Position numbers and translations under genes: made by a program. The notes under the pieces are model-generated. The model was given only the letters and a program-made list of their open reading frames with translations. It was not told the DNA's origin and searched no databases. Positions 124 to 44,014 of a stretch of 44,014 bases of DNA are shown here, one piece after another. The stretch comes from a virus. Taxonomy: Duplodnaviria; Caudoviricetes. Numbering within the stretch: the first letter of the stretch is position 1; every line of letters starts with the position of its first letter. The stretch lies in the IMG/VR virus record IMGVR_UViG_3300010366_000005, positions 1 to 44,014 of that record; one strand, given 5' to 3'.

Positions 124-210
124 ATACTCGCAGCCGTCGAAATTGAAAGAAAACTTGGAAGGGCGGGAGAGGAGTAGCTGTTATGGGAGCGGGGCGCTTC
201 GGACGCTGAT

Positions 211-522
211 ATGGGTAGCATTTTTAAGCTGTTTTTAGGACGAGCGCTGAATCTGCTGGGATACCCTGCGCTGGTGCGTGAGTGCGATTACGAGTCCCAC
301 GCACTAGGCGCAAGAGTAAGGGTGAAGAAATTGGAACTCTTCACCCTGATTGAGGTGAATGGAATAGACGTCTACTTCAATCGGTTCACCGGCACGATTG
401 ATGGTGTAGGTATTAACCCAAGCGCTGGTTGCACGTTGGATGCAATGCGAGGATCAATGCATCCTGCCGCGCAACTCGATACTCCGGTGATACCAGCTCG
501 TATGCGAACCACTGCGGATTAG
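211..522 (+). CDS. Hypothetical protein, 103 aa
   Basis: ORF just after a junction repeat; its 3' end overlaps the antisense GIY-YIG gene. Confidence 0.6.
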   Translation: MGSIFKLFLGRALNLLGYPALVRECDYESHALGARVRVKKLELFTLIEVNGIDVYFNRFTGTIDGVGINPSAGCTLDAMRGSMHPAAQLDTPVIPARMRTTAD

Positions 523-707
523 AGCGTGCAACGCAGGTGTTCTGTTCATTTGGTCAGGTGTTGAAGAAGCCGATCGCGAATGTTTTTGGCTTCTCCGATA
601 TAGATCCAAACACCCTGATTGAAGAGCGCGTAGACGCCGGACAATTGGGATGCGTTGTCGAGAATGCTGATGCGTGTGAATTGGAAACCCTTGGTTCCTG
701 TCCACAT
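413..707 (-). pseudogene. Frameshifted small GIY-YIG nuclease-domain gene
   Basis: SGVYALFNQGVWIYIGEAKNIRDRLLQHL motif, stop at 546-548. Removing one A near 549-551 continues the frame EQNTCVARSNPQWFAYELV...LHPTCNQRLG* to TAA at 413-415. Confidence 0.75.
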
Positions 708-809
708 GATGATTGACATCTCGGTTCTGAGAACTGTAAAGTTCTCGGTTCGTAAAGGTGAAGGGCCCTGGGGGAGGGATAACTTCCCCACACTAAACAG
801 CAACTCACC

Positions 810-1025
810 ATGGCTCGATTCGCGATCCCGGCAAGGCTTGACGAATCGAGCCTTCGTGTTACGGCCTACCGACAGGGTGAGGCATTGCTGTCGGAGGCTA
901 GGCGGGAGGCTTGCGCCAGGATTGCGGATGAATTGGCAGAAAAGCTCAATTGGCCTGCTTGCGATGAGTGTGATGTGGCCAAAAGTATCGCCGCCGCTAG
1001 CCGCCAGAGAGGAGAGAGGGAGTGA
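810..1025 (+). CDS. Small hypothetical protein, possibly a 3' remnant
   Basis: Ends AAASRQRGERE, like 41672-41968 (AAAIRQRGERE). Confidence 0.5.
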   Translation: MARFAIPARLDESSLRVTAYRQGEALLSEARREACARIADELAEKLNWPACDECDVAKSIAAASRQRGERE

Positions 1026-1135
1026 GCCAAAATCCGTGGATGATGCGCGAAATGTCGAAACTAGAAGTTGCTCTATGGATTACAGCAGGAATAATTGTAG
1101 GCATAGCGTGCTTCGCGATTATTTTGTGCAGATAG
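1022..1135 (+). CDS. Small membrane peptide, 37 aa
   Basis: GTGA overlap with upstream stop; hydrophobic LWITAGIIVGIACFAIIL. Confidence 0.5.
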   Translation: MSQNPWMMREMSKLEVALWITAGIIVGIACFAIILCR

Positions 1136-1155
1136 TGCCAGAGAGGAGAGCTCCA

Positions 1156-1395
1156 ATGAATTTCATGACAGCAGAGGAACGTTACCAGCGCGACCCGCTC
1201 TTTCATCAGTTGGTAGAGATGATGTGCCACCATATAGAGGAGCTTCGATTAACGCCTACCGAAATGAGAGAAGCGGCAATGCTGGCATGTCTCAAGTATG
1301 AAAATACGCATATACGCCCAATGACCTTTGGGCCATTCCGCGATAGGGCCAAAAACATCATCCGGCTGGATTTGGCCGAGGCGGGAGGAGAGTAG
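1156..1395 (+). CDS. Hypothetical protein, 79 aa (MNFMTAEERY...)
   Basis: SD AGGAGAG before ATG 1156; ends EAGGE in a junction repeat. Confidence 0.7.
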   Translation: MNFMTAEERYQRDPLFHQLVEMMCHHIEELRLTPTEMREAAMLACLKYENTHIRPMTFGPFRDRAKNIIRLDLAEAGGE

Positions 1396-1400
1396 CTGTT

Positions 1401-1511
1401 ATGGGAGCCACCTGTAGATGCAGAAAACGACCTAGGCGTTGGTGCATGTGGCATGGACTGTTGCGCTTACTCGCGGCCCCGGCCCGCGCGCGGAAGGAGA
1501 AGGGGAAATGA
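1401..1511 (+). CDS. Mini-protein MGATCRC...AAPARARKEKGK
   Basis: Same N- and C-termini as 43626-43865 with a different middle. Confidence 0.55.
   Translation: MGATCRCRKRPRRWCMWHGLLRLLAAPARARKEKGK
1472..1511 (+). repeat. 40-bp junction repeat D, identical to 43826-43865
   Basis: cgcggccccggcccgcgcgcggaaggagaaggggaaatga at both sites. Confidence 0.95.
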
Positions 1512-1627
1512 CTTGCTACCTTTGCTGCCGCAAGGTAACGACCAAGAGCAACATTGTCTTCGTCGGTAGCCAGCCAGTCCACTTCGGCCCATGTCCTAAA
1601 AGAAAAAAGCGGAGGACTAGCCCATGA
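1508..1627 (+). CDS. Small Cys/His zinc-binding-like protein
   Basis: ATGA overlap; CYLCC...HFGPC. Confidence 0.55.
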   Translation: MTCYLCCRKVTTKSNIVFVGSQPVHFGPCPKRKKRRTSP

Positions 1628-1737
1628 AGCCTGAAGAGGTTTACGTCCCTCGGCCCTGGAAACTTATCTGGTACCAATCCGCAGCTAAGACTTGGCTGCT
1701 GAAGATCGCGCATTGGAATGGAAAGGAATGGGTATGA
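1624..1737 (+). CDS. Small Trp-rich hypothetical protein
   Basis: SD GGAGG; ATGA overlaps at both ends. Confidence 0.55.
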   Translation: MKPEEVYVPRPWKLIWYQSAAKTWLLKIAHWNGKEWV

Positions 1738-2417
1738 AGCCTGACGACATGGACGACAGGGAGTTGCTCAATAGCTACCAAAATGGTCCTTGCGAATGCG
1801 ATGACTGTAGAGTGCAACGGGCCGAAATCCTGCGCCGCATGGCTGCGGGGCGGGAGGCGGAGAAGCGCCTCAATCTAATCGCGGATGCCTGGAAAAATCG
1901 AAGCATTGATTACGAGCGGGAGGTTGCAACCGTCCAGTTCGGAGAAGCCGAGTTGATTGATGATATCTTAAGTGGCAAGTTCACCGGGGCCGCGCCCACC
2001 CCGAAGCCTAGCAAGCCTTGGGGATCGTCTGGTTACTTGGAAGTATTGCCGGACGAAGCGCCCACCCCGAAGGCAGCGCCGGAGTTCAAGGGATGGGTCG
2101 CATTCGGCTGCGGCAAGCATCCTTTCAACGCAATGGGCGCGACGGCGTACAACATCGACTGCATTGACTGCCAGAGACAGCCCAAACTAGCTTGGTTCGC
2201 GGGTAGTCTACTATCTCCAGCAGAGGCTACCCCGAAGGCACAGGAGGCGGGCTGGAAATGTGAATGCGGAGCGATATTTGTCTTTACTCCAGTATCTTTA
2301 GTGAATGGCAAAGCTGATCGCAAGCACCCCGAATTTTGCCCCTATTGTGGGAGAGAATCCAACTTCGGAGCAGAGGACAGAACTACATTCACCAAAGTCG
2401 AAACAGGAAAGGAGTAG
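1734..2417 (+). CDS. Modular hypothetical protein with several CxxC motifs
   Basis: Modules separated by APTPK/ATPK linkers; C-terminal CECG...CPYCG. Confidence 0.7.
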   Translation: MKPDDMDDRELLNSYQNGPCECDDCRVQRAEILRRMAAGREAEKRLNLIADAWKNRSIDYEREVATVQFGEAELIDDILSGKFTGAAPTPKPSKPWGSSGYLEVLPDEAPTPKAAPEFKGWVAFGCGKHPFNAMGATAYNIDCIDCQRQPKLAWFAGSLLSPAEATPKAQEAGWKCECGAIFVFTPVSLVNGKADRKHPEFCPYCGRESNFGAEDRTTFTKVETGKE

Positions 2418-5636: not shown

Positions 5637-6554
5637 TTATGCGGGTTCCTGTTCCGGCAGCGGAAGCAGCATGGTCGTGTTTTTCTTCGGGAAAGCACGT
5701 TGCACCATGCGGTGAAATTGGTCCCAGTTGGTTGATGCCCGCATGAAGCCGATGATAGCGTAGAGATGCTGGGCCAGGGCGGGATTCCCGATGTCTTCCG
5801 TGAGCCATTGGTGGTGTTTAGCTGCTCGATTGCCCTTTTCATCTTTTGGGTTGCGGCGTTGCAGTTCTTCAAGGATGTTGGGGGCCAGGCGCTCATAAAC
5901 GAGATCATTGGTGTAGTGACCTACGACGGATGGGCGATTAATCTTCATCCCGCGCCACTGCCAGCCGCGAAGGCGGAACATCTCTTGGTAGAACTCGTCG
6001 GGAAATCGTTTGGCCCATGCCGCCAATTCTTTCCGGAGAAAACGGTCAAGAATGGCCTGTAGTGCCAGCTTGTCCCTAATTTCTTGGTATCCTGTGGCTT
6101 CGTCGACCAGGGCGATGATGCCAACATGGGCAAGTCCACGCATCAGTAGATCGCAGGCAAGAATGATGTGCTGATAGCGTTCCGGAACTTTGCCGGTTTC
6201 CTTTACGGAGTGGTCGCGGAATTTCAGATAAACATCGCACACCTTCGGCAACAGGTTGGCGTCATAGCCAACAGACTTAGATTTGCCGGCCTGATAAAAG
6301 ATTGGTTTCGTCGACTCTCTCAATTCTTTTGTTATGTATGGCTTAAGCACTTCTGCCTGTAAGAAAAAAGGCAAATCGTCGACAGTGCTAAGAACGCCAG
6401 TTCCGGCCTTGGGCGAACGCGCACGCCCGATTGCGCGAAGGAAACCGGCTTGATTCAAGACGCGGGTTCCATCCTCAAGCACGGCGCAAGGCAACTTGCT
6501 GTTGCCGATCGTCAGATCTCCAATATGGGTGGCTTTTCTTGTTTCATTACTCAT
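5637..6554 (-). CDS. P63C-domain protein
   Basis: LPCAVLEDGTRVL, GLAHVGIIALVDEATGYQ, WAKRFPDEFY, KHHQWLT motifs. Confidence 0.9.
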   Translation of the reverse strand: MSNETRKATHIGDLTIGNSKLPCAVLEDGTRVLNQAGFLRAIGRARSPKAGTGVLSTVDDLPFFLQAEVLKPYITKELRESTKPIFYQAGKSKSVGYDANLLPKVCDVYLKFRDHSVKETGKVPERYQHIILACDLLMRGLAHVGIIALVDEATGYQEIRDKLALQAILDRFLRKELAAWAKRFPDEFYQEMFRLRGWQWRGMKINRPSVVGHYTNDLVYERLAPNILEELQRRNPKDEKGNRAAKHHQWLTEDIGNPALAQHLYAIIGFMRASTNWDQFHRMVQRAFPKKNTTMLLPLPEQEPA

Positions 6555-7435
6555 GCGTCTACTCCTACCGCCCGTCGCAGCGTGAGATCAAATACGGCGG
6601 GATTCTTGCGATGATTGAATCTGTAGCAGAATTCGGTGATGTATTGATGGAGATGGCGAAGTGTGACTTTGTGGTACTGCCCGATGATGCCGCGCTTGAG
6701 CAGGCCCCAGAACGATTCGATGGTGTTGGTGTGGATTTCCCCGTCCACATAGCAGACTTGGTGATTGATCGTCTCGTGCCGCATGAAACTGCGGACCTTA
6801 ATGTATCCCGACCATTCATCGGTGATGAGCATGGCATCGGACACGTCAATATTTTCGCGTACAAACTTGGCCATGCTCTTGCTGCCCAGCTTGGATTTGT
6901 CCACGGCTTTAGCGATGATTCGGCCGCCACGTTCAATCATGCCCACGATGGGCTGTTTGTTGGTGCCGCGTCCGCGCTTCAATGGTGGTGCGCTCGGGTC
7001 ACGCCTGTTGCCCCTGCGCGGTTTACGCGGTCCCAAATACGTTTCGTCAGCTTCGATGATGCCTTTGAGCAATTCGCCCTGCTCAAACATGGCATTGCGG
7101 ATTCTCATGCCCATGTACCAACCCGTGTTCTTGTTTACTTCAAGATCGCGGGCAAGCTGGCGGGCAGATATGCCCTTCTTGGCGTTCAGCACAAGGGAGA
7201 TCGCCAAGAACCATTTCTGCAAGGGCAGATGGGTGTGGTGGAAGATGGTGTTAACTGTAACGCTGAACGTGGTGTTACAGGAATTGCAGTGATGCCTACT
7301 CTCTGCGGGCATCGGCGTGGTCTTGGTGGAATGGCAATACGGGCAAGCCGGAACGCCATGCCAGCGAACCTGCTCGATATGCGCGATACAATCAGCTTCG
7401 GTAGGGAATTTCTTGTAAACCGAGACGATGTTCAT
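6551..7435 (-). CDS. IS1595-family DDE transposase
   Basis: CPYC...CNSC zinc ribbon, HTH (GISARQLARDL), EADETY / ITDEW / HTNTIESFW catalytic motifs. Confidence 0.96.
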   Translation of the reverse strand: MNIVSVYKKFPTEADCIAHIEQVRWHGVPACPYCHSTKTTPMPAESRHHCNSCNTTFSVTVNTIFHHTHLPLQKWFLAISLVLNAKKGISARQLARDLEVNKNTGWYMGMRIRNAMFEQGELLKGIIEADETYLGPRKPRRGNRRDPSAPPLKRGRGTNKQPIVGMIERGGRIIAKAVDKSKLGSKSMAKFVRENIDVSDAMLITDEWSGYIKVRSFMRHETINHQVCYVDGEIHTNTIESFWGLLKRGIIGQYHKVTLRHLHQYITEFCYRFNHRKNPAVFDLTLRRAVGVDA

Positions 7436-33678: not shown

Positions 33679-33840
33679 ATGACCCCATCCCAAGACGATC
33701 TTTGCGATCTTTGCATGTCCTCGGGCGTGACAACTTACTGCGGCCTCACCATCGGAGTTGAGTGCGGCTGCGACCAGGATTGTGACGGTACTTGCGATCA
33801 AGAAGATTGCGAGGAATGTCAAATCGGAGGTGACGAATGA
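33679..33840 (+). CDS. Small acidic Cys-rich protein
   Basis: MTPSQDDLCDLC...CEECQIGGDE. Confidence 0.6.
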   Translation: MTPSQDDLCDLCMSSGVTTYCGLTIGVECGCDQDCDGTCDQEDCEECQIGGDE

Positions 33841-35549: not shown

Positions 35550-35860
35550 TCGACTACAAGCAGTTTGAGGGGCATACGCCGGGGCCGTGGTCAGCTAGGC
35601 GCGAAGGCGCGTTTGATTACAGGATAGCCCTAAGCCATATTGCCGAAACCGTCTGCAAGGTACGCTGCGAAGCCAACGCCTGCCTCATCGCCGCCGCGCC
35701 CGAGTTGTTGGCCGAGAACAAGAAGCTGCGGGAGGCGCTAGAAGGCATTATCGAATCCGCCGAGGATGGGCGCGATTGCCCCGAATGGCTGGAGGAGAGA
35801 ATTACCGACGCCCGTGCAGCCCTGAACACCGATGCGGAGGAATCAAATGGGCGGAATTAA
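35546..35860 (+). CDS. Conserved phage hypothetical protein
   Basis: HTPGPW...ANACLIAAAPELL motif. Confidence 0.85.
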   Translation: MIDYKQFEGHTPGPWSARREGAFDYRIALSHIAETVCKVRCEANACLIAAAPELLAENKKLREALEGIIESAEDGRDCPEWLEERITDARAALNTDAEESNGRN

Positions 35861-37461: not shown

Positions 37462-38061
37462 ATGATTGATGTCCGCCATTGCCTGAGATGTGACCGTGAT
37501 TTTGTGATGAGGCCGAACCGAAAGACCAGCCGATGCTCTTTATGCCGGTCTCGCTATTGGGATCGACCGCGAACGGGTAAGTGGCTGGCACGAGGCAGCA
37601 CAAATGAAGAACGGTTTTGGGCCAAGGTAAATCAGGGATTGCCGCACCAATGCTGGATCTGGATCGGAGCCGTTGCGAGACGAAGTGGAATTTTTCATCT
37701 GAAGATTAGAGGCAAGAGAAAGATGATTTCAGCACCGAGATTCGCGTACTTCCTCCGGCATGGCAAGCACCTCTCGTCAAAGTTATATGCTTGCCACACT
37801 TGCGACAATCCGCTTTGCGTGAACCCTGCTCATATTTTTGCCGGTACTTCACAGGATAATTCGACCGACATGGTATTAAAAGGCCGGAGCTGCGCTGGTC
37901 CACTCAATCGCGGAGCCAAGCTAACAAGTCAACAAGTTCAAGACATTCGCAAACGCTATAAGCACAGAAGTCCAGATAATCGCGCTCTTGTCGCGGAGTA
38001 TGGCGTAGATCGTCACACGATATCTCGTATCGGATTGGGGTACACATGGCGCAACTTTTAG
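37462..38061 (+). CDS. HNH homing endonuclease
   Basis: ERFWAKV, CWIWIG, CHTCDNPLCVNPAHIFAGTSQDN, AKLT C-terminal HTH. Confidence 0.92.
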   Translation: MIDVRHCLRCDRDFVMRPNRKTSRCSLCRSRYWDRPRTGKWLARGSTNEERFWAKVNQGLPHQCWIWIGAVARRSGIFHLKIRGKRKMISAPRFAYFLRHGKHLSSKLYACHTCDNPLCVNPAHIFAGTSQDNSTDMVLKGRSCAGPLNRGAKLTSQQVQDIRKRYKHRSPDNRALVAEYGVDRHTISRIGLGYTWRNF

Positions 38062-38570
38062 TAACTATACCCGGAGTACCCTTAGCTAAAAAGCGGCACA
38101 GATCGGTCCCGATGCACCAGTGCCTCGGCTGTCACAAGACCGTCCAGGGGATGTATTCGGTTTGTCCCACCTGTGGCGGCGGGTTGCGGTTTCTGAAGAA
38201 TATCTCGTATCCGGATTCCGAGTCGGTACGGTATGAGAATCTGGTTGCGTATTCGTTGAGACAGGCCATGGACAAGGCTGGGATCCAGATGTTGAATAGC
38301 GGGTTGAAGATGCGGTTGACTTTCTTGTTTCCGATGCCCGATAGCCGCCAGCACCGGCCTGGCGCTCCATGCCCCGGAAATGGGTGCAAGAAGCTGCACA
38401 CGGGCGACTCGCACACCCAACGTCCCGATCTCGATAACTGCATCAAGTCGATTCTGGATGGCGGCAATGGGGTCTTGTATGCCGATGATGATGTGATCTG
38501 CGAGTTGAGCGCGCGGAAGATCTGGGCGAGCGAGGGAAAGACGGAGATAATTGTGGAGACACTCAGTTGA
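38046..38570 (+). CDS. rusA: RusA Holliday junction resolvase
   Basis: RPDLDNCIKSILDG...YADDDVI. Confidence 0.92.
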   Translation: MAQLLVTIPGVPLAKKRHRSVPMHQCLGCHKTVQGMYSVCPTCGGGLRFLKNISYPDSESVRYENLVAYSLRQAMDKAGIQMLNSGLKMRLTFLFPMPDSRQHRPGAPCPGNGCKKLHTGDSHTQRPDLDNCIKSILDGGNGVLYADDDVICELSARKIWASEGKTEIIVETLS

Positions 38571-39508
38571 ACCTCTTTCTTGATGCTACCTCGATCACCG
38601 CTTTCTTGCGCTGCAAGGAAGAGTTTCGTCAAACATATCTGGTAGGACGCGCGAGTCGCTATATCGCAATTCATAGATCCAGCGGGATTGCAGTTCACCG
38701 GGGCATCGAGTCGCTCTGGCGAGGCAAGACCTTTACCGAGGCCCAACACGTGATGATGGACTACTTTCTGAAGATTGACGAGTCGCGTATCTTGCCCACC
38801 GATCTGAAGAAATGGGGCGAGTTGAAGGAGATGGCGCCTGAGCAACTTGCGGTCTACGCGGACGGTACCGAGATCATTCCGGGGTGTGCGCTCGAGCACG
38901 AGTGGACGTGGAAAGAGCCCTTCGGGATCGCGGAGTTGACGCTTGGAGGCCGGATGGATCGAGTTGAGCTCGGGGGATCTGGCTTGAGTGCTCCTCTCTG
39001 CGAGACGCCACACCCTGCCCGTTCCGTAAAACTCATCGATATCAAAACCGCATCGGAGATCGACGGCTATGACGAATTTGGAAAGAAGGTCGGCTGGGAG
39101 CGTTCTTACCGGGCTCAGATGTGCAAGGATGTGGGCCTCGGTCTATATGATTGTTATCTGCGTAAGATTGGACTCGTACCTACGGCGGTGGTTTTAGAGG
39201 TCATCACCAAGCCGAGCGAGCGGTATGGGAAGAAGTGCCGGCTGGTGAAGATGGAGCTGCCCGAGGTGCTGGCCTATCGGGAGCGCTTCGATATGTTGCT
39301 GGAGCTCACTGCGCGCGAGATCTTGCACTACGTCCGCCATTACCGCGAGATGCAGCCCTGGCCGATGAATGTCTCAGCTTGTTCGGGGAAGTTTGGGAAT
39401 TGTTCCTTTTACGCGCTGTGCAATCTGGGACTCAACCCGAGGACGGAGAAGCTGTATGGGAAGCGGGAGGAGCATCTGAGTATCAAGGAGAGAATCAGTG
39501 GTATTTGA
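38567..39508 (+). CDS. PD-(D/E)XK exonuclease (Cas4/RecB-like, 4-Cys)
   Basis: GIAVHRGIE, GRMDRV, IDIKT; N-terminal C plus C-terminal C..C..C. Confidence 0.85.
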   Translation: MNLFLDATSITAFLRCKEEFRQTYLVGRASRYIAIHRSSGIAVHRGIESLWRGKTFTEAQHVMMDYFLKIDESRILPTDLKKWGELKEMAPEQLAVYADGTEIIPGCALEHEWTWKEPFGIAELTLGGRMDRVELGGSGLSAPLCETPHPARSVKLIDIKTASEIDGYDEFGKKVGWERSYRAQMCKDVGLGLYDCYLRKIGLVPTAVVLEVITKPSERYGKKCRLVKMELPEVLAYRERFDMLLELTAREILHYVRHYREMQPWPMNVSACSGKFGNCSFYALCNLGLNPRTEKLYGKREEHLSIKERISGI

Positions 39509-39770
39509 CCCAGAAGATCAACGTTATACGTCTAGACATTTGTCTAAGACAAGTATCTTAGACAAGTCCCAGGAGCGGCATGTGCCGGTCTCGAAGAAGT
39601 CGATCGACATGCTGGAGTCGGCGATCGGACAGCTGGTTGAGCGGGAGCCGGAGTGGACGGAGACAGCGCGGGTCTTTGCCCAGAAGGCCGGACTGAAGCG
39701 GGTGCTGAAGCTGATCGAGTTTCGCCGCGAACAAATCAAGCAGCAACAGGAGACACTGAAATATGACTGA
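39498..39770 (+). CDS. Hypothetical protein
   Basis: SD AAGGAG, GTG start. Confidence 0.65.
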   Translation: MVFDPEDQRYTSRHLSKTSILDKSQERHVPVSKKSIDMLESAIGQLVEREPEWTETARVFAQKAGLKRVLKLIEFRREQIKQQQETLKYD

Positions 39771-40488
39771 ACCTACTGCACAGCAACAACTCGCCGTCCA
39801 GAAAGCCGATGGCCTTGAGAAGCGTCTTGCGGCCTTCGATGATCTTGCCGACTTCAACTGGAAGACACTGAAGCCAAATGTGATGGCGCGCGTCCTGATG
39901 AAGAAACCCTATCGCGGCAAGACAGGCGAGCCGGATTACTATCTCACTCCTGAGCAGGCGTTGGTCTTTGCCATGCGCTCTTTCGAGTTGGGGCTGTCGC
40001 CGCTCTCATCCGAGGTCTGGTTCGACCGGGACCGCTGGTCCACCAATGTCACGCTTGAGGGAAAGATCCGGCTGGCGCGGGAGCGCGGGATCACCGGGGC
40101 GCCGACCTTCAAGGAAGAGAAGAGGCCATGGAGGAAGGGATCGCCAGCGCTTCTCGGGTACGCCGAGGAGCCGGGGATTACCGCGACCATCAAGGCCGGA
40201 GACAGCGAGTGCTCGTACACGGTGTGGTTGAGCGAGTGGATGGTTTCGACGTCGCCGGTCTGGAAGGCCAAACCAACTCACATGATGATGGTCAGAGCCT
40301 ACGACAAAGTACTCGCATTCGCAGCCGGGGTGGGAGTAAGTTCCATGCCCGACGAGAAAGAGATTCAAGCGGAAGACATCCCGGCGCTGCCGACGCGACA
40401 GGAGTTTACCTCACCTGAGATCAGCCGTACTGAGTTCTCGGACATGGAACCGATACTCAAGAAGTCGATTGAGGCGGTGAAGAAGTAA
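39763..40488 (+). CDS. RecT/Red-beta-like single-strand annealing protein
   Basis: LGLSPLSSEVWF, LEGKIRLA, SPVWKAKPTHMMMVRA. Confidence 0.85.
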   Translation: MTEPTAQQQLAVQKADGLEKRLAAFDDLADFNWKTLKPNVMARVLMKKPYRGKTGEPDYYLTPEQALVFAMRSFELGLSPLSSEVWFDRDRWSTNVTLEGKIRLARERGITGAPTFKEEKRPWRKGSPALLGYAEEPGITATIKAGDSECSYTVWLSEWMVSTSPVWKAKPTHMMMVRAYDKVLAFAAGVGVSSMPDEKEIQAEDIPALPTRQEFTSPEISRTEFSDMEPILKKSIEAVKK

Positions 40489-40499
40489 AGATGTTCGAC

Positions 40500-40641
40500 G
40501 CGGAGGGGATTTTTATGCAGGAAGCGATGCGGCGCTGTACAAAATCCGGGCCAGCGGTTTTTAGGGGATTCCGCTCCGGTGCAGGCGGCGGCCAACAAGC
40601 GCTCCGCGAGGGCGGCAACTCCTGCTAAAAATCCCCTCCGC
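40500..40641 (+). ncRNA. Candidate structured RNA with 22-bp closing stem
   Basis: gcggaggggattttta(t)gcagga / tcctgctaaaaatcccctccgc. Confidence 0.5.
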
Positions 40642-40669
40642 AATAATTCCAATTTGGAGAATATAACAA

Positions 40670-41344
40670 ATGCCAATTGACTACAACCAATACTCAACCT
40701 CGGGCCAGGGCGATCTCTCGCCTCTGCCTGAAGGCGTCTACACCTCTAACCCGAAGTCGAAGGACAAGCGGGGAGAGTCACTGAAAATCATCAAAGAACT
40801 GGCCGTCAAGGAAGTCAAGGGCGGCGCCACCCGGCACACGTTTCTAGTCGGATCGGATGACGAGCGTGGCACCGGCTTTCTGAAGATCGATCTGCACCCC
40901 TGGTCGCTGCGTCCGGAGACCATCGCCATGGCTCTCGGCAAGAAGCCCAAGGACGCGAGCGGTAACGGCCACTTCTTCATTTCGCCTGAAGTTTTGGCGC
41001 AGCTCGATGCGGCAGCCGTGGACTCGACCCAGAAAGAACTCGAAGAGATTGCGACGGCGAAGGTCGCTGAAGCTAACACCCCGGATGAGCAGGTCGGCGA
41101 GGCCATCAGCGCGACTCTTCACAAGATGCTGGTACAGGTCCAGATCAATGTCGGGACCATCTTCCGGTTGCAAGACTGGGCCGGCTACGCGCGCAATCCC
41201 GAAGAGGCGCTTTTGAATCTTGAGGGCGTGTACTTCGAGGGATCAGTTAAGGCCGGTCTCAACGATTCAGTCGAGATCTCGGTGTTCTCGAAGAAGAAGG
41301 ATGCCGCGCCAGCAGCGAAGGCGACGGACTTTCCCGTGGAATGA
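40670..41344 (+). CDS. Putative ssDNA-binding protein
   Basis: PLPEGVY N-motif; C-tail ending DFPVE; follows the annealase. Confidence 0.55.
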   Translation: MPIDYNQYSTSGQGDLSPLPEGVYTSNPKSKDKRGESLKIIKELAVKEVKGGATRHTFLVGSDDERGTGFLKIDLHPWSLRPETIAMALGKKPKDASGNGHFFISPEVLAQLDAAAVDSTQKELEEIATAKVAEANTPDEQVGEAISATLHKMLVQVQINVGTIFRLQDWAGYARNPEEALLNLEGVYFEGSVKAGLNDSVEISVFSKKKDAAPAAKATDFPVE

Positions 41345-41433
41345 GTTGAGGCATAGGGGCGGTACTTTTAAAACGCCTGGCGATAGAGGCCATGGTTCAC
41401 GAACCGACGCCGCCCCCTTTTAGGAGTTCAAAG

Positions 41434-41679
41434 ATGCTGGGTGAAGATGTGGTTTCGATGTTGATGCGCGGCTACTCGATCAAGGTTGCCGCAGCGGAAC
41501 TCGGGATCAAGCGCCACGTGGCGGATCTCGCGCTCAAAATACTGAGGCGGCAAGAAGGGTGTCAGACCACGACTCAGCTGGTTTGCAAGTTAAAGCGGCG
41601 GGTCAGAGAGCGTGACCGGGAGTCGAGGGCCGATTACATGAGACAGTGGAGATTGCGGAAAGCGAGTCGCCATGCCTGA
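41434..41679 (+). CDS. LuxR/GerE-type HTH protein
   Basis: GYSIKVAAAELGIKRHVA...TTTQLV; SD AGGAG. Confidence 0.7.
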   Translation: MLGEDVVSMLMRGYSIKVAAAELGIKRHVADLALKILRRQEGCQTTTQLVCKLKRRVRERDRESRADYMRQWRLRKASRHA

Positions 41680-41968
41680 CCTAGCCAAGCTGGAGGAAGA
41701 AGCGCGCAAGTTCGCAGACGAGAAATATCCTGGTGGCGATTTCGCGCAGTATGGCGATCCCATTGACGAACTTGTGCAACGCCTGAGTGAGTTCGCCCGC
41801 GACAAGATACTGGAGGAGCGGGAGCGCGGGGCAGAGATTCGCAGAGCCGCCGAACATTTGCTGGAAATGCGTTGGCGTGATGGTTCGGTGGACGTGGAAG
41901 ATGCCGTCGAGAAACTTGGAGAGCTGCTTCGTGCCGCCGCCATCCGCCAGAGAGGAGAGAGGGAGTGA
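41672..41968 (+). CDS. Hypothetical protein
   Basis: Ends in junction repeat A. Confidence 0.75.
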   Translation: MPDLAKLEEEARKFADEKYPGGDFAQYGDPIDELVQRLSEFARDKILEERERGAEIRRAAEHLLEMRWRDGSVDVEDAVEKLGELLRAAAIRQRGERE

Positions 41969-42138
41969 AAACTGAGCAGGAAATAGAAGCATTATTGCGC
42001 CGCAGAAAATTGGAGTTAGAAAAAATCAGAAAGCGCTTCAACAAATATGACAATTACGACGATCTAAAACTCATTGATGCACTTATTGTCGAAATCGGCG
42101 CACTTGGCTGGGTATTAGGCGGAAAAGATAATATCTAG
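41965..42138 (+). CDS. Hypothetical protein MKTEQEIE...LGWVLG
   Basis: GTG start lies within junction repeat A. Confidence 0.7.
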   Translation: MKTEQEIEALLRRRKLELEKIRKRFNKYDNYDDLKLIDALIVEIGALGWVLGGKDNI

Positions 42139-42232
42139 CCCTGCATAGCGGGCCGGAGGGAATGATGATAGCCCCGAGTCGCTGTCATTCCTGCGATGGC
42201 TTGGGCGGTCCGCTATGGAGGACTTAGACGTT

Positions 42233-42376
42233 ATGAGCCGAGAAGCGGAGAATATTTTCGATAAAGTTTCCAGGGAGCTATTCGGCAAACCTTGGGCAGA
42301 TTTGGCCGAAACGCCTGAGCGCGAACAGGTTAGAGTACGAATCAATGAAATATTGCGGTTGCGGAGCGTTAACTAA
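42233..42376 (+). CDS. Small protein MSREAENIF...
   Basis: SD GGAGG. Confidence 0.55.
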   Translation: MSREAENIFDKVSRELFGKPWADLAETPEREQVRVRINEILRLRSVN

Positions 42377-42377
42377 A

Positions 42378-42557
42378 ATGCCGGTTATTAAATTCACGTC
42401 CGGAGAAGAGGTAATTAAGCTCACTTTTCGTAACCTGCCGACGCCAATGGTGGAGTGGAGCGGAACAGCCAAAGAACTCCATGACATCATCTTTGGGGCA
42501 TGGCTGAATTCGGACAAATCCGAAGAGGATTCGGCGCTGCGCCAGAGAGGAGAGTAG
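42378..42557 (+). CDS. Hypothetical protein
   Basis: Ends RQRGE in a junction repeat. Confidence 0.55.
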   Translation: MPVIKFTSGEEVIKLTFRNLPTPMVEWSGTAKELHDIIFGAWLNSDKSEEDSALRQRGE

Positions 42558-42562
42558 CTCCA

Positions 42563-42808
42563 ATGCCAAAAATAGGCACGTTTGATGTTCTGAAGGTAAT
42601 GTGTGAGCGCAATTTGGACATTCGCCTTTCGACGCTCAACAACATCAGCGACATGCGCAAAGTCAAGGCTGGGACAAAGGTAACAATCGGTGTGGCAGGC
42701 GATGTACTCAATCCGATCTGGCGTGGCGAGTTGGTGGGCGGATTTCTGCTGGCCGATAAGAAGCAGTTTGAAGACATTAAGCGCGAACTTGAGGCAGGAG
42801 GAGAGTAG
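42563..42808 (+). CDS. Hypothetical protein
   Basis: Bounded by two junction repeats. Confidence 0.75.
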   Translation: MPKIGTFDVLKVMCERNLDIRLSTLNNISDMRKVKAGTKVTIGVAGDVLNPIWRGELVGGFLLADKKQFEDIKRELEAGGE

Positions 42809-42813
42809 CTCCA

Positions 42814-43011
42814 ATGTTGGGTAGCATCTTGGATTCCGGTGAAGTGCCAACTTTGCGGCACGAATTATGCGGGTTGGAGATTGCGAGCCGGATGTTGACG
42901 GAGAAGGTTCGCTGGGATGTCCACTGCCAGATTGCGGCGGACTCGTTAGAGAGCAAAATAAATGGCACAGAGTCGGTAACGGAACCGCAAAAGGACGCAT
43001 ATAGAGAGTAG
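42814..43011 (+). CDS. Hypothetical protein
   Basis: ATG lies within a junction repeat. Confidence 0.6.
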   Translation: MLGSILDSGEVPTLRHELCGLEIASRMLTEKVRWDVHCQIAADSLESKINGTESVTEPQKDAYRE

Positions 43012-43020
43012 GAGGATGAC

Positions 43021-43434
43021 ATGAAAACATGCGATTTTTGCGGTAATACTGAAGGACAGTGCAACTGTGCAAGCCCAATGTTTTCAACAAAGAAGGAGAC
43101 TATTATGAAGCAGCTATTCGGAGTAGATGTTAAAACCGCCAGTTTGTCGGATGGCCACCCGTGGCGGGCGTGGTTAGATCGAGAGACGCCGCAACCTGAT
43201 GTATTTGGCGAAGGGATTACCGAAGCCGCCGCCATTATCGACCTTGCGAATAAGCAGGGAGCAAAGCGTAAAGATGTAGCGACTCATTGCCAAGAGTGCG
43301 AACGGCCAATTCCCGATCATGCTACCTATTGCATCCTGCTTAACGATGAGGACTTTTGGTTCTGTACGAACTTTTGTATGGCGCAATGGGCAAAAGCCTG
43401 TTTGCTAGGGAGCCCTGAGGCGGGAGGAAAGTAG
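43021..43434 (+). CDS. Cys-rich modular hypothetical protein
   Basis: SD AGGAGG; CQEC...FCTNFC. Confidence 0.7.
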   Translation: MKTCDFCGNTEGQCNCASPMFSTKKETIMKQLFGVDVKTASLSDGHPWRAWLDRETPQPDVFGEGITEAAAIIDLANKQGAKRKDVATHCQECERPIPDHATYCILLNDEDFWFCTNFCMAQWAKACLLGSPEAGGK

Positions 43435-43439
43435 CTGTT

Positions 43440-43622
43440 ATGGGACAGGATTGGGATAAGCCCTACGAAGCGCCCGAAGGTAAGATTTGGGTCTGCGGAG
43501 CCTGTGGAAAGAGCGGCAAGAATCGGACTACGATTGGGGATGAAGCCTGTTTTCTAAATGCCGTACTCTGCTATGAGCAGAAGGATTTGGCGACTGGAAA
43601 TTGGAAAGCAGAGGAGGAGTAG
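43440..43622 (+). CDS. Small zinc-ribbon protein
   Basis: WVCGACGK; bounded by junction repeats. Confidence 0.7.
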   Translation: MGQDWDKPYEAPEGKIWVCGACGKSGKNRTTIGDEACFLNAVLCYEQKDLATGNWKAEEE

Positions 43623-43625
43623 CTG

Positions 43626-43865
43626 TTGGGAGCCACGCGGACCCAGCAAAAGATAGAGCGCATTCATCAGCGATTGATGGATTTGCGCGATTCCACGCCA
43701 TCGCGGAGAGGTCACATCGTCGCCGGAAAGAAGTATGTTGCGGTTTACCTGAAAGCCTACAACACCAACCATCTAACCGAATTCTACGCCGCCGCCGAAC
43801 GATACAGACACTTTTTGCAAGATGGCGCGGCCCCGGCCCGCGCGCGGAAGGAGAAGGGGAAATGA
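43626..43865 (+). CDS. Hypothetical protein (TTG start)
   Basis: MGAT...AAPARARKEKGK. Confidence 0.65.
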   Translation: MGATRTQQKIERIHQRLMDLRDSTPSRRGHIVAGKKYVAVYLKAYNTNHLTEFYAAAERYRHFLQDGAAPARARKEKGK

Positions 43866-44014
43866 GCATTGAGACGCTTTCGGACATCATCACGGAACTG
43901 GCCGACAGCCTTGGCGTTTATGGCGCTCACGGCGATGAGGATGTTCCTGGCGATGTAACTTGCACCGAGGCCAAGCCTTGCCGCATGTGCTTCGAGAGTG
44001 GACTTCGCGGGCGA
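43862..44014 (+). CDS. Hypothetical protein spanning the circular join (continues to TAG at 175-177)
   Basis: MSIETLSDII...CRMC...RAGEE*; open across the terminal repeat. Confidence 0.7.
   Translation, partial: MSIETLSDIITELADSLGVYGAHGDEDVPGDVTCTEAKPCRMCFESGLRGR
43892..44014. repeat. Terminal direct repeat, copy 2
   Basis: Identical to 1-123. Confidence 0.97.

Follow-up and report, generated by a model that had tools for sequence, protein, structure and literature searches.

Ordered in-frame linkers at the gene boundaries of a phage small-gene array as likely crossover points for gene exchange

Short blocks of DNA that recur in order at gene boundaries are described here in the phage record IMGVR_UViG_3300010366_000005 of IMG/VR, whose whole stretch of 44,014 nucleotides is hereafter called the window. 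Its ends overlap by 123 nt, and the record is complete, a phage circle of 43891 bp. The blocks lie in a plus-strand run of small genes, the array, which follows genes for RusA, a nuclease and a RecT-like protein (Table 1) and crosses the circular join to about position 2800. The best explanation, which we consider likely, is that ordered linkers of about 20-45 nt keep their place around differing genes and serve as crossover points for general homologous recombination; the locus is better named a linker-mediated exchange region than a dedicated system. An earlier note, made from the letters of this DNA alone, had proposed an integrase-free cassette-shuffling system at this site.

Repeat blocks at the gene boundaries

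The array repeats are real and far above chance. Block A comprises 25 identical nucleotides at 41944-41968 and 1001-1025 (36 nt at 94%), block D comprises 40 identical nucleotides at 43826-43865 and 1472-1511, block B is found at 42541-42565 and 1137-1158, and block C at 43417, 43611, 162 and 1378; the earlier note had placed all four correctly. The hybrid site that it described at 42791-42816, with the left half of C and the right half of B, is present as well, as is the left half common to A and B, which measures 14-15 nt. Repeats are carried by 11 of the 17 gene starts of the array, the same number of boundaries as had been counted before, and the remaining six are without a within-genome repeat. 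The 3619 nt of the array contain 14 exact repeats of at least 13 nt; none of 74 stretches of equal length elsewhere has more than 3, and none of 1000 order-3 Markov simulations more than 4. Similarly, 14 of 136 junction pairs in the array share at least 12 nt, compared with none of the 1081 pairs among the 47 other gene starts of the genome, so that a shared Shine-Dalgarno sequence alone does not explain the repeats. Outside the array, an exact repeat of 19 nt that begins with ATG lies at 33679 and 33837, and one of 24 nt with 96% identity at 35817 and 36040.

Each block comprises the codons for the last residues of the upstream protein, a purine-rich ribosome site and a stop, and often it also covers the codons with which the next gene begins. 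The shared core of A, B and C is read in one frame, and the left and right halves occur in several combinations; a crossover within the core would therefore leave both genes translatable. Block D has only AGGAGA in common with A, B and C and reads it in another frame, which makes it a separate linker class. The claim that any swap keeps translation coupled is thus correct within A, B and C and within D, but not between these two classes. In B2 the left half does not encode a tail, as the upstream gene ends before it, at 1135. When the linker-encoded ends were trimmed, no similar pair was found at E 0.05 among 20 slot proteins, 16 from the window and 4 from a related contig, L061. The genes inside the two A-B-C-D blocks are indeed unrelated, as the earlier note had it, but the order is more than a simple repetition and reads in full A-B-(C/B)-C-C-D-C-A-B-C-D-E, where C/B is the hybrid.

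Synteny breaks at the linkers in related soil DNA

The sequencing runs that best match the window are soil metagenomes. The contig L061 (1385 nt) has the arrangement B-gene-B-gene-C-gene-D-gene-E, in the same order as the window; its DNA matches to the window are those blocks only, its four slot genes being unrelated to window genes, and it matches the loose end of a 310-nt contig of run X1 with a depth of 3.8. Among the contig pieces and loose ends listed (X1 was examined to about 84% and X4 to about 48%, and 18 and 5 further loose ends and 15 and 14 further pieces lie beyond the listings), block D has at least six upstream flanks: the two in the window and those in L061, in a 762-nt contig of X1, in a 249-nt contig of X4 and in one contig of X2. 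In five of these six listed contexts it is preceded by C. At least four downstream flanks were read directly, in addition to that of the 762-nt contig. The latter is an alternative to 1412-1621 (depth 7.4 versus 20.7) in which C and D are kept: it departs in C2, reaches D after 299 foreign letters and rejoins the window at 1622. The X4 contig leads from C through 111 other letters to D and then to a different gene start, two X5 contigs depart just after B1 into other sequence, and one X1 contig does so just after A2, at 1028. In four of the five C-to-D alleles, two of the four being the window's own, one uninterrupted frame joins the MGAT head and the AAPARARKEKGK tail. In related DNA, namely L061 and the contigs of X1, X2, X4 and X5, synteny thus breaks at the repeats, as had been anticipated.

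Wider searches returned little beyond these loci. In viral_contigs, patterns for D (31 nt exact), for C and for B and C jointly gave no loci, and a degenerate D pattern gave one, which was judged unrelated. In metagenome_contigs the degenerate pattern gave 29 loci, of which two are those of the window and one is that of L061; the other 26 were set aside as sharing the purine-rich core only (24-31-nt matches in L067 and L068). Short matches of about 80-88% with loose ends off the linkers were likewise set aside as chance, other organisms or homologous modules; they include 41095-41131, 41179-41220, 41462-41498, 41686-41721, 42510-42546, 878-914, 1215-1250 and 2090-2125. No relatives were found in viral_contigs with the proteins of 40670-41344 and 1156-1395 or in genome_contigs with the capsid protein, 41900-44014 had no match among GenBank phages, and Rfam had none in the window.

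Tandem arrangement, read depth and excision

In X1, the stretch 40500-43855 is a single unitig of depth 32.3 without differences to the window. From there the depth runs from 32.3 into D1 to 35.6 out of it, and on through 19 plus 10.7, 20.7 plus 7.4 and 21.8 plus 7.4 to 32.1 at 1622. The sole ambiguous node in this path is D, as its 40 nt exceed the unitig k-mer, and none of the listed contigs spans D1 with 31 letters to either side (a 520-nt X4 contig has 15 on the left). These features, together with the records of another assembly that place these genes on contigs of 42411 and 1368 nt, would fit an assembly chimera of two strains joined at D. Yet the X1 depth is consistent along the window path, the 762-nt allele joins 1356 to 1622 without an exact D node, and the reuse of linkers in L061 and in a more distant relative (G008, below) stands even if the tandem were artefactual. 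A chimera is therefore extremely improbable, and unitig continuity and depth flow support the tandem A-B-C-D arrangement, in agreement with the earlier note.

The depth flow balances along the window path and does not fit a separate D-D circle; joints from 1511 to 1 in contigs arise from D1 mapping onto D2. No repeat-to-repeat circles were seen in contigs and depth was without clear excess, D-D excision being detectable at this k-mer only by depth. The excision between copies of A or of D that the earlier note had envisaged was accordingly not seen, and a 752-bp deletion that does occur uses a 3-nt microhomology unrelated to the repeats.

These observations bear on the idea of a dedicated integron-like cassette system, in which an unrecognised recombinase would read the junctions and genes would move as excised circles. 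Sharp borders and gene-sized slots would suit such a system, and the majority of the phage's proteins are without a family assignment, which leaves room for an unknown enzyme. We nevertheless consider it very unlikely. No match to the tyrosine (PF00589) or serine (PF00239) recombinase families was found in the window phage, with positive controls in 14/14 genomes for PF00589, so that the region is integrase-free as far as these two families go, as had been claimed. None of six junction folds was better than shuffles (z between -1.07 and +1.06), the junctions fall into several sequences unrelated to one another, with wholly different sets in relatives, and the depth at the D node balances without a circle. 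Integron arrays, too, are rows of small unrelated genes separated by repeats, but they have the IntI tyrosine recombinase, attC hairpins and a single site family, whereas in the window no tyrosine recombinase and no hairpin (6 folds) were found, there are several site families and the slot order is kept.

Linkers in more distant relatives

Homologues of three slot genes carry the tail found in the window in none of ten cases (0/3, 0/5 and 0/2). The three homologues of 43626-43865 agree with it in the core, as far as FLQD or FLQDG, but beyond that point their ends differ and the AAPARARKEKGK tail is missing; all five of 1156-1395 are without the EAGGE tail; and those of 42563-42808, in G015 and G016, have different heads and tails. 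The tails therefore belong to the array and not to the gene families, and comparison of these sequences suggests that genes acquire the ends of the slot on entry.

In 12 capsid-related records (most with 73-79% capsid identity) the window's blocks were absent at the mismatch limits used, apart from a C-like core that occurs once in G015. This phage has repeated tail and head blocks of its own, with different sequences; linker sequences thus differ between lineages. The most informative comparison comes from G008 (C1:1-78747), in which two related phages are concatenated at a shared 127-nt stretch (1-127 = 44883-45009). Their structural proteins are 39-61% identical in seven of eight pairs and 79% in the eighth, with four-fold sites near-random. 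Even so, the small-gene region has 11 colinear blocks of 20-45 nt at 89-100% identity, whose sequences differ from those of the window. Between the blocks, all nine testable segments are no better matched than shuffles, and the tenth is an empty-versus-filled site. Seven of the 11 blocks are in-frame linkers inside a single modular open reading frame (ORF). The earlier picture of cassette shuffling is thus upheld insofar as synteny breaks fall at repeats, but the unit is not the whole gene only, since the same kind of block joins modules inside proteins.

In identical runs defined at the amino-acid level, identical codons make up 65/69 in the G008 linkers versus 145/302 in 42 core-gene runs. 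This test is preferred to a four-fold test on nucleotide-defined blocks (48/48 versus 325/869), which is biased by the choice of blocks. Silent-site identity in the linkers indicates conservation at the DNA level and points to recent DNA exchange over peptide constraint. It could otherwise be imagined that tails and heads are conserved as peptides, serving as signals for degradation, targeting or termination-reinitiation, with the DNA repeats merely following; the blocks are indeed read in frame as tails, and both changes in the D block of L061 are synonymous. However, silent sites are conserved too, B2 and the first B of L061 persist where the tail is untranslated, and tail-free homologues exist, which makes constraint on the peptides a very improbable explanation.

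A possible mechanism of linker exchange

The enzymes predicted to carry out linker recombination are the RecT-like annealase and the exonuclease of the phage; RusA, the nuclease and the predicted RecT-like gene are all present, as the earlier note had it. The protein encoded by 39763-40488 itself had no direct Pfam or PHROG match and no match among PDB sequences, and its prediction as a RecT/Bet-like annealase comes from its family, in which 9 of 44 members match PF03837 at E<=0.1 (best E 4.2e-4), and from comparison with RecT-bearing clusters (Atlas features 0.96; model TM 0.70 and 0.49, with a model that is not its own). Annealase types also vary among relatives, ERF being found in three of five records, an AAA_24/Sak4-like protein in one and none in one; together with the varying linker sequences, this fits a sequence-independent enzyme. 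No match to the 38567-39508 exonuclease was found among 22 capsid relatives. In another relative, G022 (C1:20234-26130), which also encodes a RecT-like homologue, there are several palindromic sites containing CGTTTAAACG.

Between co-infecting relatives, linkers would often be the sole remaining homology in the region, so that crossovers would land there. An exchange between like linkers would swap the content of a slot and preserve the frame and the next gene's ribosome site, leaving most products viable, and every exchange would re-copy the linker and so hold it nearly identical. Out-of-register crossovers between like linkers could give rise to the tandem block, for which the C site between the two blocks (160-190) is probably the candidate crossover point, and to the hybrid C/B site. 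The first entry of a new gene into a slot would probably be a rare microhomology event followed by selection for in-frame fusion. As to the homology needed, a minimum of about 30 bp is cited for Red-beta (PMC3945230), RecET is described as active on 5-13 bp at low efficiency (PMC2327257), and phage Rad52-like recombinases are described as acting on short, diverged sequences (PMC3945230; PMC2327257).

A bolder version, which we hold only tentatively, sees the positional 'grammar' of in-frame linkers as a recombinase-free combinatorial library, in which microgenes or modules are entered into numbered slots with slot-specific heads and tails. In the same version, constant exchange would keep the linkers identical even between phages with core genes saturated at silent sites, and selection for evolvability would act on the architecture as such.

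Linker exchange weighed against passive origins

Several observations weigh against linker exchange. The four runs X1, X2, X4 and X5 come from no more than three samples, and the window itself may derive from X1; contigs that share a repeat alone necessarily break there, which is a matter of ascertainment; and the G008 comparison draws on one record joining two genomes. In X1 no variant breaks the 40500-43855 unitig, so that no A-A, B-B or C-C deletion is seen, while the 752-bp deletion (533-1284), which accounts for about one-third of the depth in X1 (10.7 versus 19) and is present in X4, lies off any linker. The antisense GIY-YIG-like insertion has no linker at either end. The 762-nt allele is out of frame for one C-to-D gene and shares long flanks on both sides, so that its latest crossovers need not have used linkers. 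The synonymous differences in the D of L061 leave room for protein-level constraint. Among five near-complete capsid relatives, G007, G016 and G017 have no junction-type internal repeats at E 0.05. Lastly, D, with 40 nt, fits the minimum of about 30 bp, but A, B and C, with 14-31 nt shared, are at or below it.

Some of these points would be expected if the blocks were passive relics, that is, if illegitimate or microhomology recombination took place anywhere, selection retained only those products whose stop, ribosome site and start were all undamaged, and the blocks were the stumps of ancestral junctions, contributing little to crossing over. This is the standard alternative to the boundary model (PMC3233612; PMC3029335), and the deletion and the antisense insertion, which disregard the linkers, speak for it, as does the possibility that the 762-nt allele crossed over in its long flanks. 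Such stumps should diverge silently, yet the G008 linkers have nearly all codons identical whereas the core runs have 48%; moreover, D is identical at 40/40 positions between unrelated genes, and the other gene starts of the genome share no 12-mer. On this evidence passive relics are unlikely to be the main explanation. The two explanations do not exclude each other, because a gene entering the array for the first time would probably require illegitimate events.

Comparison with known systems

The modular theory of lambdoid phages holds that short conserved boundary sequences at mosaic borders are sites of homologous recombination (PMC3029335, PMC3233612, PMC2327257, PMC2839356), and in a mycobacteriophage case about 50 bp are shared at the C-termini of two genes (PMC3029335). 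Two features of boundary sequences are found here as well, as the earlier note had suggested: short conserved borders between unrelated modules, and occurrence in a subset of relatives with the position kept (L061; contigs of X1, X2, X4 and X5; 11/11 colinear blocks in G008). The present array differs from those described in that it is a dense, ordered series of distinct linkers, at the scale of single microgenes and below, placed in coding tails and heads, and in that a tandem duplication occurs in one genome and alternative alleles coexist in soil samples.

The PeSL repeats of the T4-type phages RB49 and phi1 likewise mark gain, loss and replacement of genes without an integrase in a variable small-gene region, but as described they are non-coding promoter and terminator units of one family that are associated with mini-circles (PMC2839356). 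In contrast, the linkers of the window are coding and of several ordered types, no circles were seen, and they show no promoter or terminator signal: promoter-like sites gave 2 and 2 matches versus 2.1 and 2.2 expected, with none inside linkers (other promoter types were not covered), and no terminator-like sites were found on the plus strand. The start-associated sequences (SAS) of Cluster K mycobacteriophages, the other analogue named before, resemble the blocks as asymmetric AGGAG repeats just upstream of the start codons of non-structural genes, but they have a single 13-bp consensus across the cluster and a proposed role in translation initiation (PMC3203893). The window's blocks share the AGGAG core before the start, but they are longer, of several types and lineage-specific, reach into both flanking genes and mark gene swaps.

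By the features tested, the array is therefore neither PeSL, SAS nor integron. The principle, that of boundary sequences, is old; what the array adds is ordered coding linkers at microgene and sub-gene scale, with unusually direct population evidence. The literature searched, which leaves out most subscription journals and the supplements, gave no account of coding linkers that are ordered, in frame and combined with sub-gene modules. Whether mosaic borders are targeted by short conserved sequences or result from filtering after recombination is a long-standing open question (PMC3233612; PMC3029335). The present locus offers defined linkers of 25-40 nt, natural alleles and an adjacent candidate annealase, so that, with recoding that separates DNA from peptide, this question becomes directly testable. 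The same seams can build chimeric proteins, beyond the reordering of genes.

Features of the array and its surroundings

Table 1. Features of the array and of the neighbouring recombination genes, in window positions
Feature	Position	Strand	Remarks
RusA Holliday-junction resolvase	38046..38570	+	
PD-(D/E)XK nuclease, likely partner exonuclease of annealase	38567..39508	+	PF12705, 24.9 bits, above cut-off
RecT/Bet-like single-strand annealing protein (predicted)	39763..40488	+	family-member PF03837 matches; Atlas 0.96 to RecT cluster
Linker A1	41933..41968	+	tail AAAIRQRGERE, Shine-Dalgarno, GTGA stop/start overlap
Linker B1	42533..42565	+	tail ALRQRGE, TAG, 5-nt spacer, ATG; 27 nt identical to L061 435-461
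Hybrid linker	42791..42816	+	C left half (EAGGE), B right half
Linker C1	43417..43445	+	
Degenerate linker C1b	43611..43638	+	next gene from TTG 43626, GAT head
C-to-D slot gene, allele 1	43626..43865	+	79 aa
Linker D1	43826..43865	+	tail AAPARARKEKGK, Shine-Dalgarno, ATGA overlap
Gene after D1	43862..44014	+	68 aa; runs across circular join to 177
C linker between the two blocks	160..190	+	starts 8-codon mini-ORF, then ATG 211; 28 nt identical to L061 932-959
Antisense GIY-YIG-like gene	411..803	-	frameshifted near 546; PF01541 E 5.7e-4, below cut-off; no linker at ends
752-bp stretch deleted in subpopulation	533..1284	.	3-nt microhomology, away from linkers
Linker A2	990..1025	+	
Linker B2	1137..1158	+	without TAG; upstream gene stops at 1135
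B-to-C slot gene	1156..1395	+	79 aa
Linker C2, MGAT head	1378..1411	+	left border of alternative alleles in X1 and X4
C-to-D slot gene, allele 2	1401..1511	+	36 aa
Linker D2	1472..1511	+	identical to D1
Block E	1609..1654	+	junction and start of 1624 gene; L061 87% over 46 nt; X1 762-nt allele rejoins
Modular 227-aa protein	1734..2417	+	three APTPK-type linkers; modules occur separately in other proteins

An older gene, from 211 to about 1025, was probably interrupted by the antisense GIY-YIG-like gene. With the 752-bp deletion, A2 and B2 are lost together with most of this antisense gene and half of the gene at 1156.

In the modular protein at 1734-2417, a 15-nt exact direct repeat encoding APTPK lies at 1992-2006 and 2058-2072, with a third linker near 2223. 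Its 13 protein matches comprise one near-self sequence, six that cover mainly the module flanked by the second and third linkers of the APTPK type, five that cover only the module after the third and one that spans more. The protein record P0065 corresponds to the 1734 protein without exactly the 22-residue module between the two repeats, and it stops at the third linker. Either a genuine deletion or an assembly mis-join could account for it, and with no contig for it and the joint absent in the four runs it is given no weight as proof. One X2 contig has in common with the window only the 33-nt start of the 1734 gene (1735-1767, with 2 differences), its flanks differing on both sides, and this start is a possible further head-type linker.

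Elsewhere, the window carries genes for terminase, capsid, primase/helicase, RusA, HNH and endolysin. Modules of annealase, exonuclease and RusA are typical of temperate phages; here no integrase was found although such a module is present. The gene at 40670-41344, after the annealase, encodes a protein of 224 aa that weakly resembles DUF669-type clusters (Atlas 0.89, 18% of members) and is a tentative candidate for a single-strand DNA-binding protein. Lastly, a transposase of the IS1595 family (ISXO2-like) followed by a P63C-domain gene lies inside the phage genome at 5637-7435 on the minus strand.

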